DNA of 64,000 nt from Escherichia phage JEP6, in the sequence record MT764206.1; one strand, written 5' to 3'. Shown here one piece after another: positions 38,034-52,163 of the stretch. Every line of letters starts with the position of its first letter. Positions within the stretch are counted from its first letter, which is position 1. The notes under the pieces were generated by a model, which saw nothing but the letters and a program-made list of their open reading frames with translations, was not told where the DNA came from and made no database searches. A program made the translations under genes and the position numbers.

Positions 38034-38482
38034 TCAACAATCACAATTTCTAATTTAGAGGAATATGTATCTAAAATCCCCTCAATAATATCCCAGTTCC
38101 CTTTACCTATGCCTGCACCAATCCTAGGCATATAGATTGTAGGTTTAATCAGTTTATTTTCACCAAACTCATTTAATTCTAACATACAATTCATTAAAGC
38201 GAAATACTCAAAATTTGGCCCTGGTTGAAATTGAGTATAAAGATTAAAGCAGTAAGCTTTATGAGTCCTAAAGTATTTTTCATAGACTGAATAAGAACCA
38301 AGTTTAGTTACATCACCCCATTCAGTCTGTAGTTTATCAGCTTCCAGAATTTTAGGGAAAGCTTTGGTTAATTGACCTGCGACTCCAGCTTTCATCGTAT
38401 GAAAACAATTGCATCCATGCGCAATATTTTTACCTTCAGCGAAAAGGGCGACAATATCGCCCTTGATATATTTTACAATCAT
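38015..38482 (-). CDS. Macrodomain protein (TARG1/DarG-like ADP-ribose hydrolase fold)
   Basis: GDIVALFAEGKNIAHGCNC...AGVAGQL and YMPRIGAGIGKGNW resemble the TARG1/C6orf130 motifs (SLAHC...GAGIA; MPRIGCGLD). Confidence 0.6.
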   Translation of the reverse strand: MIVKYIKGDIVALFAEGKNIAHGCNCFHTMKAGVAGQLTKAFPKILEADKLQTEWGDVTKLGSYSVYEKYFRTHKAYCFNLYTQFQPGPNFEYFALMNCMLELNEFGENKLIKPTIYMPRIGAGIGKGNWDIIEGILDTYSSKLEIVIVDWEPLL

Positions 38483-38826
38483 TTAGTACTCAATCCTCGA
38501 TTATAAGAATCTACCAAACGGTCAACCATTGAATGACAAGCGGCTTTATCTTTCTCCTCCGCAACTGAACATTCTAAGGTATTCCACTTTTTAGCATATC
38601 GTTTTAATAATGTATCGTTTTTGTATCTGCTTGATTTATCTCTTTCTCCATCTTTATATGCATATATTAATTTCTGCGCAAATTCAGCTTGGCACGCTTT
38701 ATTTTTCCCACAATAATCTGCCGCAGTGCGGTTTACATATTCTCTAATTTCAGTATATGATGTATCTGCTGACGCAGAAGCAGAAAATGAAATTAATCCT
38801 ATACATAAAACCAAAATTTTAGTCAT
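38479..38826 (-). CDS. Secreted Cys-containing protein (vs position by order)
   Basis: Signal peptide MTKILVLCIGLISFSASASA; 115 aa. Confidence 0.5.
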   Translation of the reverse strand: MTKILVLCIGLISFSASASADTSYTEIREYVNRTAADYCGKNKACQAEFAQKLIYAYKDGERDKSSRYKNDTLLKRYAKKWNTLECSVAEEKDKAACHSMVDRLVDSYNRGLSTK

Positions 38827-38992
38827 TTACTATTTCCAAAAGTTTATTATTTTTAAGGTAATTAGCCTTTTCTAGGACTTCAGAAGCATATTTAGAACCA
38901 GCTTTAACATTCCATCCTGAATTATAAGAGGATATTGCTTTTCTTATATCGCCCTTATGTATATTTAACCAATAAGAAAGTTCAATGTACGC

Positions 38993-39364
38993 TCAGGAAG
39001 CTGAATTGGATCGTTTATTCAACATTCTTTTTATTTCAGCATCGGTCATATTATAACCAAGTTCCTTAACTCTTGCTCGCATAGTAGGCAAATAATTTTG
39101 GAACATTCCGTAGGCGTGATGCTTTGGTTTAGATTTTAAATTAACTCCGCCAGAGCTTTCTTGCCATAAAATAGCAGCCATTATATGACCTAATCCGCTC
39201 TTGTGGATATTTTTGTGTGTTTTATATTTTCCATCCTTAGAAAATTGTTCCCCGAATTGATACGCGTAACGCATGTTATCGAGTTGGACATTACTGAAAG
39301 TATGCTCGGAGCTATGTGCCATCATTGAAATGGCCAATAGACCAGCGAGTAGTGCTTTTCTCAT
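38993..39364 (-). CDS. Secreted protein with lytic-transglycosylase-like motifs
   Basis: Signal peptide; LWQESSGG ... AYGMFQ (SLT-like E-S / G-x-M-Q motifs). Confidence 0.45.
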   Translation of the reverse strand: MRKALLAGLLAISMMAHSSEHTFSNVQLDNMRYAYQFGEQFSKDGKYKTHKNIHKSGLGHIMAAILWQESSGGVNLKSKPKHHAYGMFQNYLPTMRARVKELGYNMTDAEIKRMLNKRSNSAS

Positions 39365-39371
39365 GCTTACC

Positions 39372-39833
39372 TCATTGAGTTTTAATTACTGCTTTAGAAG
39401 CCTTTCCTGGTAAACGACGACTGTTGATAATTGCCATCCTACATTGAAGTGACGGGTCTTTGAACTTCGCGTTAGGTTTACAAACTGTAAATCCAAGCCA
39501 AAGATTTCCATCTGTGATTTCTAGACGTCCAGGACGATATTCAACCCCATCAATAAAATCCTCGTCAATGTCAGGACGCGGAGGCATACTCAGGAATTCA
39601 TTAACTTCTAAAACATGGTCTTTTATTTTATGGAATAATTCAAAAACATATGTCTCATCAATCTCCCGTTGAATTGCGCGATCAAGAAGATGTTGAGAAT
39701 ATTTTAGATGAAACGATGAGACCCCTGCTGCTTTTGATGCCTCACGAATCTCATTGTTAATTTGACGAAACTCCGACTCAAAGTGACGACGAAGCTTATT
39801 TCGACGGATAAAAACTTCTGTGTTGATAGTCAT
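39372..39833 (-). CDS. regB: Endoribonuclease RegB
   Basis: 153 aa at the expected position; recognised N-terminus MTINTEVFIRRNKLRRHFESEF. Confidence 0.8.
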   Translation of the reverse strand: MTINTEVFIRRNKLRRHFESEFRQINNEIREASKAAGVSSFHLKYSQHLLDRAIQREIDETYVFELFHKIKDHVLEVNEFLSMPPRPDIDEDFIDGVEYRPGRLEITDGNLWLGFTVCKPNAKFKDPSLQCRMAIINSRRLPGKASKAVIKTQ

Positions 39834-39857
39834 GTTATTCTCCTCTTAACTGATAGA

Positions 39858-39890
39858 AAAATTATACCACAGTCAAGAGGAAAAGTAAAC
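39858..39890 (-). promoter_or_regulatory. Early promoter upstream of regB
   Basis: aaattatacca ... gtaaac. Confidence 0.5.
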
Positions 39891-39892
39891 AA

Positions 39893-40171
39893 TTATTCTT
39901 TAAATCTAATCAATTTATTCATAGACTTTGAAACTTCTGCACGAACCTCATGTAGATTTTTGAGCTGTTCAAGACGCTGCTCATAGTAAGCAATTTCATC
40001 TTCTTCGAGACAGTCCTGTGAATCTTCTTTAAGATAACGTGCATAGTCCTGGAAAGCGTTACGAACTACTTCCTGGAAGTCATCAAGACTTTGAATTTTC
40101 TTAGGAGCAACAGATACACGACGAGGGGCAGTATAATACTCATAACCAAACCCTGCGCTTAATTGAGCCAT
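39893..40171 (-). CDS. Hypothetical protein (vs.3 position)
   Basis: ATG at 40171 overlapping the upstream stop; the track start at 40213 is less likely. Confidence 0.45.
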
Positions 40172-40473
40172 TAGTATTTTTCCTCTGGTTGGAACACAGC
40201 ACGGCAAGCCCACATACTGGCTTCTTTGAGTTTCGTTTTAGCAATAGTTAACTGATCGAGGCTTTCGGCGTAATTCTTCGCGAGTTCACAGTCTTCACAA
40301 TTATCTAGTGCTTCCCAGAATTCATCGTATAAAGCATCAAAGATAAGTCCTAAACGAACTTCAGCGTCTTTGATAGCATTCACTTTACCGATTTTCTTTT
40401 CAGTATGCGGCTTATAACCCTTAATATCTTCAATCATATTTGACTTCCTCACCAGTACATAAATCATATTCAA
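40171..40473 (-). CDS. Hypothetical protein at the vs.4 position; candidate anti-CBASS Acb2 by synteny
   Basis: About 90-100 aa, third ORF upstream of regB; identity by map position only. Confidence 0.4.
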
Positions 40474-40651
40474 CTAAACGAATAGGTTCATGAATGCCAT
40501 ATCCTTGAACAGAAATTTCTGTAGTAGGATAAATTCCATCAATATCGCCCATATTCCACGCTTCATTAAATTGCTGTTCGCCTGAATTACTAAACCATTC
40601 GGCGAAAGCATTTAGCACATCTTCAGAACCTTCAATAATTATCTTTGCCAT
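40430..40651 (-). CDS. Hypothetical acidic protein
   Basis: 73 aa ORF. Confidence 0.45.
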   Translation of the reverse strand: MAKIIIEGSEDVLNAFAEWFSNSGEQQFNEAWNMGDIDGIYPTTEISVQGYGIHEPIRLVEYDLCTGEEVKYD

Positions 40652-41013
40652 TACAAACTCTCGGTAAAGGTACGAGCGATAACGTCGCGCTGCTGTTCCG
40701 GAGTCAGAGAGTTAAAGCGAACTGCATAACCGGATACACGGATGGTCAGCTGCGGATATTTTTCCGGATGCTTAACTGCATCTTCCAGAGTTTCACGACG
40801 CAGAACGTTAACGTTCAGGTGTTGACCACCTTCAATTTTAACTGTAGGCTGTTGCTCAATTTCAATTTCACGGGCATGCAAACCGTAGAAAATTTCTGGG
40901 TCTACAAAAGAGTCCTCTTTAAAGGTTTTAGAAACGATAATTCGTGCTTGAATACCATCTTCAAAATAAATAGTACCTTTATGTGTGCCTTCAAGAATTT
41001 GATATGCTTTCAT
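40651..41013 (-). CDS. Autonomous glycyl-radical cofactor (GrcA/YfiD-like)
   Basis: C-terminal [25 protein letters not shown] glycyl-radical motif; 120 aa. Confidence 0.75.
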
Positions 41014-41020
41014 ATAAACC

Positions 41021-41350
41021 TCAATTAGAAAATAAATTTATCCAAGATTGTTCTTTAATTAAAAATGGCTCAGAATCATATGCCATTAAACTCTGTGTGA
41101 TTAGTCCTTTAAAAGGCCCATCAATAAATTCCATGGTAAAATATGGAATTTTATTCATTAGCCGTGCATTAGGAGCAGTACACAAAACTCTGCATCCTTT
41201 GAATACACCTTTTTGTAATTTGTATTGCTTAGGATAAAATTCACTTAAAATGTTATTTTTTGCCAAAATTTCAAAATGATTCACCAATTTATTTTTAATA
41301 GTTTTTGGCGAAAAATAAAGATATTCGAAAAGCTGAGTGTCTGTCATCAT
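41021..41350 (-). CDS. Hypothetical protein
   Basis: ATG at 41350 overlaps the upstream stop (ATGATGA). Confidence 0.45.
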
Positions 41351-41886
41351 TGCATTCCGATTACGAAAAACTGCGGACGAGTAATACCACCAATACAACA
41401 TTTAATATTACAGCAGCAGTGTACAGTGTCAATGTGGACACTATAAATCTTATCCATATCAGGAGATTTGACAGGCTCATCAATTATATATAAAATTCGC
41501 GAAAGCGATAAACCTCTGAACTTGCTTCCTTTATTACCAATAAAACTGCGCACAGAATCAGTAAATAAACGAAAACGTATATCATCATTAGAATAACGCG
41601 AAAATTCCTTTTTAATGTTATTTGCAGAAATTTTAGCGTAAGCTGAAGTATTAGAAAGAACAATAACCGTTCCGCCATCATATAACCAATTAGCAGCAAA
41701 GTTAGTCACAGCAATTGATTTACCTGATTGACGTCCACCATCTAGTCGAAGTGTGCAATACTGTTTAAGTAAGTCTTCAAATGGTGGGACATAACCGTTC
41801 TTACAAATTTCTTCTACTCTAGCATCAGAATGGTGTGTAAAAGCATTCATCAGGGATAGATAAGGTCCAGTTAAAAATGTTCTCAT
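41347..41886 (-). CDS. Hypothetical protein occupying the denV-side position
   Basis: 179 aa; DGGRQSGKS P-loop-like segment; Cys-rich tail; no similarity to endonuclease V. Confidence 0.45.
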   Translation of the reverse strand: MRTFLTGPYLSLMNAFTHHSDARVEEICKNGYVPPFEDLLKQYCTLRLDGGRQSGKSIAVTNFAANWLYDGGTVIVLSNTSAYAKISANNIKKEFSRYSNDDIRFRLFTDSVRSFIGNKGSKFRGLSLSRILYIIDEPVKSPDMDKIYSVHIDTVHCCCNIKCCIGGITRPQFFVIGMQ

Positions 41887-41966
41887 TTAGTTTCTCTTTT
41901 AGGTTGGGCCATTCCGTGGCGCATGAATTGTCCATTTCTGTATTTACCCCTCCAAGTAATTATGAA

Positions 41967-41997
41967 TATACTATCACAATTCTAGGAGAAAGTAAAC
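41967..41997 (-). promoter_or_regulatory. Early promoter cassette copy
   Basis: tatactatca ... gtaaac. Confidence 0.5.
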
Positions 41998-41999
41998 TG

Positions 42000-42302
42000 T
42001 TATTTACCTTTAATTACTTTAGCTGCTTCGATAGCCGCTTGCTGAAGGTCATCCATAGACATACCGAATTTAGAAGCAAAGTTATCAATTTTCTTTTCGA
42101 CAGCATTCAAAGGCTTGGCCTGTTTACCTTCATTAGCGCCAGGAAGAGCGAGAATACGCTCTTTGTCAATATAAAGGCTTACAAGTTTCTTACGGTCTTT
42201 ATCGGACAAATCATGAAATGAATGGGCCTTTTTATTTATAGCGGCTTCTAATTTACCTGCACTCACTCGCGCTTCAGTAATAAATTCTTGATATGTTTTC
42301 AT
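42000..42302 (-). CDS. Internal head protein (IPII/IPIII-like) with capsid targeting sequence
   Basis: MKTYQEFITEARVSAGKLEA... CTS with L-x-E cleavage context; 100 aa. Confidence 0.7.
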   Translation of the reverse strand: MKTYQEFITEARVSAGKLEAAINKKAHSFHDLSDKDRKKLVSLYIDKERILALPGANEGKQAKPLNAVEKKIDNFASKFGMSMDDLQQAAIEAAKVIKGK

Positions 42303-42357
42303 ATGTTTCCTTTAAATGTAAATATTTTAATTGGTAATTGACTGTTTAAGTAACTGT

Positions 42358-42391
42358 GAATATATTATCACAATTCTAAGAGAAAGTAAAC
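42358..42391 (-). promoter_or_regulatory. Early promoter cassette copy
   Basis: tatattatca ... gtaaac. Confidence 0.5.
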
Positions 42392-42396
42392 TGCTT

Positions 42397-42921
<525 letters not shown>

Positions 42922-43362
42922 TTAAAAGAGGTTGTTCATTATTCGGTAAAGTGAAGGACCCATCACATATTGCCACTGAGTACGAGGAATAAGAGCAAAA
43001 GCGTCCATCTCTGGAATCATAACACCATCTTTATTTTCAAAATAAGACTCGCAATGGCAATTTCTAAACATCTCATGCTCTACTGGAATCGTATAATAAA
43101 ATAGCTGTAAGTCTTTATTACTAGAATATTTAAATACACCTAGGTCTTCTAGAAGGTCTGGATTATAATTGCTAAAACCGGTCTCTTCTAAGCATTCTCT
43201 TTTTGCAGCTTCCAGTGCATTCAAATCAGAACTTTCTACACGGCCCTTTGGAATATCCCAGCGGTGTGCCATCATTCCAGGCTTACGAGAACCAGTAACC
43301 CGACCCATAAATAAATCTTTATCTTCTGTCATAAAGATAATACCAGCTGATAAGGTTTTCAT
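42922..43362 (-). CDS. nudE: Nudix hydrolase
   Basis: Nudix box GRVESSDLNALEAAKRECLEETG. Confidence 0.8.
   Translation of the reverse strand: MKTLSAGIIFMTEDKDLFMGRVTGSRKPGMMAHRWDIPKGRVESSDLNALEAAKRECLEETGFSNYNPDLLEDLGVFKYSSNKDLQLFYYTIPVEHEMFRNCHCESYFENKDGVMIPEMDAFALIPRTQWQYVMGPSLYRIMNNLF

Positions 43363-51466: not shown

Positions 51467-52163
<697 letters not shown>

Follow-up and report, generated by a model that had tools for sequence, protein, structure and literature searches.

The gene at positions 40171..40437 on the minus strand of the window, i.e., of the whole 64,000-nucleotide stretch of Escherichia phage JEP6 DNA analyzed here (MT764206.1), is very probably the ortholog of T4 vs.4 (acb2, anti-CBASS protein 2) in a Tequatrovirus phage, with a product that would act as a hexameric cyclic-dinucleotide sponge blunting CBASS. 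Structure, ligand and role of the T4 protein have been published, and the window gene is an allelic variant of what is already known.

Identity of the gene and position of its start codon

The assignment had originally been made from gene order, and missing similarity to members of the Acb2 family had been named as the observation that would speak against it. First, the protein was compared with T4 Vs.4/Acb2, as had been proposed at the time. With 86 of 88 residues identical over the full length (97.7%; PDB 7UQ2, E=5.1e-56 against all PDB sequences), the match was near-total. Second, the protein matched Pfam family PF24729 (Acb2_Tad1_hairpin) over the entire profile (1-58 of 58) and scored 69.7 bits, well above the gathering cut-off of 27 (E=2.5e-19). 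Third, it matched PHROG 717 (E=6.4e-32), the group by which Jenson et al. defined the Vs.4 homologues (PMC10097602). In addition, matches to the acb2 protein were found by tblastn in 1,231 phage records; given this number and the E value against 7UQ2, the ORF is clearly not a chance one. A near-identical gene in GenBank PP328843 is annotated as 'anti-CBASS protein 2'. A weak, colinear match to Acb2 of Pseudomonas phage PaMx33 (8H2J/8IXZ, E~0.08) aligned Y8 with PaMx33 Y11 and K23 with K26. NCBIfam contained no model matching Acb2 or Acb1. Together with the exact synteny described below, these results support the assignment of the ORF as the counterpart of T4 vs.4.

The six-frame ORF list contained a minus-strand ORF of 100 aa at 40171..40473, which starts with TTG and ends with the stop codon at 40173..40171. 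The original prediction had given this ORF with its coordinates and no strand. Its lower end was placed correctly, and its upper end lay 36 nt too far, since the true start is most likely the ATG at 40437..40435. The resulting CDS (40171..40437) comprises 88 codons and a TAA stop; at its 5' end, the minus strand reads GGTGAGGAAGTCAAATATGATTGA.

A start at TTG 40473, from which the frame is indeed open, would add 12 residues to the N-terminus, which might block or alter the N-terminal pocket. However, the 12 codons concerned (40438..40473, minus strand) lie inside the CDS of the upstream neighbor vs.5 (40430..40651, minus strand) in a different frame. In the DNA, a Shine-Dalgarno-like GAGGAAG was read at 40444..40450 on the minus strand, a putative ribosome-binding site of acb2, with its GAGG (40450..40447) 9 nt 5' of the ATG at 40437. 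The T4 annotation, in which Vs.4 is 267 nt long and likewise shares 1 nt with Vs.3, begins at the ATG, as does the crystallized T4 Vs.4 construct, which consisted of residues 1-88 (PMC10097602). Furthermore, 45 homologues were collected from T4-like phages in IMG/VR, and an ATG was present within one codon of the acb2 start in all 45 of these Straboviridae sequences. The N-terminus MAIEDIKGY, which begins at the ATG, is one of the two start forms among them. The 100-aa ORF starting at TTG was rejected because of the vs.5 overlap, the GAGG site, the T4 annotation and the homologue starts, and translation from the TTG has practically no chance of being correct. Since the extension lies within vs.5, and in view of the T4 annotation, the crystallized construct and the homologue starts, acb2 was placed at 40171..40437; the 12-codon extension is most likely outside the real protein.

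Genomic neighborhood and comparison with T4

The genes vs.5, vs.4, vs.3 and regB follow each other on one strand, in the same order as in T4 (KJ477684) and PP328843. Thus, the gene order from which the vs.4 assignment had started, regB with two ORFs upstream, was found again, with regB at 39372..39833 and vs.3 at 39893..40171 (both minus strand), followed by the ORF at 40171..40473. The product of regB, which served as the synteny anchor, matched Pfam REGB_T4 (E=1.4e-68) and was 99.3% identical to T4 RegB. The product of the upstream gene vs.5 matched PHROG 1986 (E=9.6e-44) and was 100% identical to a protein of Tequatrovirus NIC06P2, and that of the downstream gene vs.3 was 98.9% identical to T4 Vs.3. 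When the T4 proteins were mapped onto the window by tblastn, they aligned in the T4 order: Vs (38826..38482, 99.1% identity), Vs.1 (39364..38822, 99.4%), RegB (39833..39375, 99.3%), Vs.3 (40171..39896, 98.9%), Vs.4 (40437..40174, 97.7%) and Vs.7 (41350..41024, 100%). A 1.8-kb stretch around the ORF had matches in 820 phage records. In about 500 of these, the identity was 95-99%, and the best match reached 98.8%; the best matches listed were all T4-like phages, several of them named Tequatrovirus.

The CDSs of the three genes overlap at their ends. The TGA stop codon of vs.5 (40432..40430) lies within an 8-nt overlap with the start of acb2 (ATGATTGA), an arrangement that points to coupled translation. 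The ATG of vs.3 shares 1 nt with the TAA stop of acb2 (TAATG), as is the case in T4. Judged from these overlapping stops and starts, translation of vs.5, acb2 and vs.3 from one message is suggested. A scan of positions 39300..43000 with promoter and terminator consensus sequences yielded 12 sites, i.e., no excess over the 13.1 expected in shuffled sequence. Among these sites, which as a set were not above chance, the minus-strand promoter-like site closest to acb2 on its upstream side was located at 41432..41405, and another at 39889..39861 just before regB. The vs.5-acb2-vs.3 region is an early region in T4. By analogy, we infer that acb2 is transcribed and expressed in JEP6 as in this T4 region.

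Several neighboring genes showed features of their own. In vs.1 (38819..39364, minus strand; 181 aa in T4, with a weak match to SLT transglycosylases), codon 124 is TGA instead of TGG, which places a premature stop codon at 38995..38993. The frame beyond this codon is identical to that of T4, and codon 124 is TGG in T4, PP328843, NIC06P2 and five relatives from IMG/VR. This TGA may represent a true nonsense mutation, an opal codon that is read through, or an error in the sequence. The gene vs.6 (40651..41013, minus strand) encodes 120 aa with a C-terminus matching Pfam Gly_radical (E=2.5e-18) and is annotated as autonomous glycyl radical cofactor GrcA in related phage records. The product of vs.8 (41347..41886, minus strand; 179 aa) matched its own PHROG and, weakly, that of the terminase large subunit (phrog_2, E=1.5e-5, residues 45-142); it is 92% identical to its NIC06P2 copy, compared to 98-100% for its neighbors. 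The slot between vs.8 and the lysozyme gene e (41887..42396) contains only an ipII-like gene (42000..42302) with 93% identity to T4 IpII, and tblastn with T4 denV (endonuclease V) and ipIII gave no match at any position of the window. In PP328843, denV is present in this slot while ipII and ipIII are absent. Based on this difference in gene content, the slot between vs.8 and e is variable among T4-like phages.

Functional residues and predicted mechanism

As reported for T4 Vs.4, the hexamer accommodates three cGAMP molecules, every one of them located between a pair of protomers (Jenson et al. 2023, PMC10097602). In this structure, Y8 and F82 stack on the bases, and Y8, H11, K23 and R79 provide hydrogen bonds or salt bridges; mutation of the hexamer-interface residues L29, A66, A73 and A77 abolishes binding, while that of F33 is milder (PMC10097602). 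A loss-of-function screen yielded the alleles T12I, L60F, S74N and A77I (PMC10097602), and the study on Panoptes added Y8A and the escaper allele F82C (PMC12657218). Compared with T4, the window protein was unchanged at Y8, H11, T12, K23, L29, F33, L60, A66, A73, S74, A77, R79 and F82. This list includes the pocket residues Y8, H11, K23, S74, R79 and F82 and, at the level of sequence comparison, the interface residues L29, F33, A66, A73 and A77. Among the 45 T4-like homologues, Y8, H11 and K23 were invariant, and R79 and F82 were present in 42. The alignment of these homologues revealed that residues 1-30 and 67-88, i.e., the pocket-forming segments, are nearly invariant, while the middle of the protein is variable.

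The only substitutions relative to T4 Vs.4 are E14K and F52L. Position 14 is occupied by D, E, K or Q among the homologues, and K14 also occurs in the closest relative, Tequatrovirus NIC06P2. At position 52, F was found in 19 and L in 16 of the 45 sequences. None of 50,697 phage records contained the exact K14/L52 sequence (100% match). Along the chain, residue 14 is a close neighbor of H11 and T12, and a quantitative effect of E14K on affinity or specificity is possible; nothing positive was found in favor of a quantitative difference between the K14/L52 and T4 alleles.

A more far-reaching consequence of the two substitutions would be an Acb2-family sponge with a shifted ligand spectrum, e.g., with weaker binding of the decoy 2',3'-c-di-AMP, or with binding of a Thoeris signal such as 3'cADPR. 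Besides the location of residue 14 near the pocket, it is in favor of this reading that some distant Acb2 homologues bind 3'cADPR (PMC12393519) and that decoy systems should select for changed specificity (PMC12657218). However, every reported contact residue is identical to T4, and E14K and F52L are common natural variants at variable positions. Moreover, the Thoeris-binding homologues are distant and not alleles with 98% identity to T4. A shifted spectrum was considered very unlikely. The same low probability was assigned to the more specific idea that the K14/L52 protein might show reduced binding of the Panoptes decoy 2',3'-c-di-AMP and retain that of 3',3'-cGAMP; if true, this change in preference would be a natural step in the arms race between sponge and decoy. 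The preferred reading is that of a sponge equivalent to T4 Vs.4.

It was also considered that acb2 may be inactive, i.e., a decaying remnant that has lost expression or folding. Loss of the gene may occur, as single-base deletions in acb2 are present in 3 of 46 related IMG/VR loci, for which sequencing error is an equally good explanation, and the neighboring gene vs.1 carries a premature stop codon in the window. In contrast, all 88 codons of the window gene are in an intact frame, the putative ribosome-binding site and the start/stop overlaps are preserved, and the functional residues are all unchanged. At the nucleotide level, acb2 differs from T4 vs.4 at 13 positions, and 11 of these differences are synonymous. 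This split of 11 synonymous to two non-synonymous differences fits purifying selection. With this ratio and the intact frame, the pseudogene reading was rejected as extremely unlikely.

As to the three IMG/VR loci, the truncating deletions are located at about 2230 (L044), 2060 (L046) and 2205 (L047). In the stretch compared between L047 and the near-identical locus L037, the deletion was the only difference within acb2. These deletions are either errors of sequencing or cases in which the sponge was lost naturally, and selection by a decoy system like Panoptes would favor such a loss.

A single-sequence AlphaFold2 model of the window protein consisted of two predicted helices (residues 10-45 and 50-81; mean pLDDT 80.3). 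When this model was compared with the PDB by Foldseek, 7UQ2 was the top-ranked entry, and the next were 8H2X and 8H2J, both of Acb2, with TM scores of 0.51-0.56 and an rmsd of about 6 A. The superposition on the 7UQ2 chain was moderate (TM 0.56, rmsd 6.2 A). Generic helical hairpins superposed better geometrically on the model, and the Foldseek ranking owes much to sequence. The model shows a predicted helical hairpin and nothing beyond. Because of the TM scores of 0.51-0.56 and the rmsd of about 6 A, it was not counted as independent structural support.

Taken from the work on T4, the following mechanism is proposed. The acb2 protein is probably translated from a polycistronic mRNA that also carries vs.5 and vs.3, and the 88-aa helical-hairpin protein would assemble into a hexamer. 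Three pockets would form, each between the N-terminal and C-terminal parts of a pair of protomers, and each pocket would hold one cyclic dinucleotide, e.g., 3',3'-cGAMP, in uncleaved form. Y8 and F82 would stack on the bases, and Y8, H11, K23 and R79 would supply the hydrogen bonds and salt bridges. In this way, the signal of the host's cGAS-like enzyme would be sequestered, the CBASS effector would stay below its activation threshold, and the phage would complete its cycle. It is by analogy with T4 that the protein is expected to form hexamers, to bind its ligands and to counteract CBASS, and that the time of its expression is predicted. T4 Vs.4 binds 3',3'-cGAMP with a Kd of about 30 nM, and inhibition of CapV was reported (PMC10097602). 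T4-type Acb2 also binds 2',3'-c-di-AMP (about 62 nM; PMC12657218), and further cyclic dinucleotides are among the Acb2 ligands (PMC10312549).

The original prediction had named the protein a candidate cyclic-oligonucleotide sponge. The sponge part of this description was retained; for the T4 type, the ligands have to be restricted to cyclic dinucleotides (PMC10312549). T4 Acb2 binds neither cA3 nor cAAG, and its D61R mutant did not rescue binding (PMC10312549). The window protein possesses D61 and T68 as does T4 Acb2, and the trinucleotide pocket of the PaMx33 type (R67/T74) is not matched. Thus, like T4 Acb2, the window protein probably does not bind cyclic trinucleotides.

Related systems and significance for the phage

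The closest known system is T4 Vs.4/Acb2 (7UQ2), with which the window protein shares its length of 88 aa, 86 of the 88 residues, all functional residues and the position of its gene between vs.5 and vs.3 near regB; it differs by E14K and F52L and the gene by the 13 nucleotide differences. Acb2 of PaMx33 (8H2J, 8H2X, 8IXZ; Huiting et al. 2023; Cao et al., PMC10312549) is the founding Acb2 and belongs to the same family with the same helical-hairpin architecture; its hexamer, like that of T4 Vs.4, takes up three cyclic dinucleotides. Y11 and K26 are essential for its dinucleotide binding, and T4 and PaMx33 Acb2 share 24.2% identity (PMC10312549). Unlike the window protein with D61/T68, PaMx33 Acb2 has a second pocket (R67/T74) for cyclic trinucleotides (PMC10312549). 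Thoeris anti-defence 1 (Tad1) is similar in that family PF24729 takes its name from a hairpin domain common to Acb2 and Tad1 and that both are oligomeric sponges of immune nucleotides. However, the main ligands of Tad1 are the gcADPR signals of Thoeris.

The window also harbors acb1 (T4 57B; 51467..51922, minus strand), which encodes a nuclease degrading cyclic nucleotides. Its product matched PDB 7T26 'Acb1' (E=4.1e-62), and all 146 residues aligned with 'anti-CBASS protein Acb1' of PP328843 were identical, the two proteins having 151 and 152 aa. Acb1 (T4 gp57B) is functionally related to Acb2: it targets CBASS nucleotide signals and is encoded by the same phage, outside the operon of acb2. 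In contrast, fold and mechanism are unrelated, since Acb1 cleaves the signal and Acb2 only sequesters it.

Thus, both of the known anti-CBASS genes are present in this phage, i.e., acb1 and acb2. The finding as such is ordinary and raises no new question. Its main value lies in correct annotation, as acb2 is labelled 'hypothetical protein' in most of the phage records listed, and it may be used in host-range prediction, e.g., for phage therapy. The work on T4 predicts that this phage would broadly evade CBASS systems signaling with cGAMP-type and other dinucleotides. It has been shown for T4 that the binding activity of Acb2 triggers the Panoptes decoy system (PMC12657218). The same work predicts sensitivity to decoy-nucleotide systems triggered by Acb2; by analogy, acb2 probably exposes the phage to systems such as Panoptes and would be a liability on hosts that possess them.
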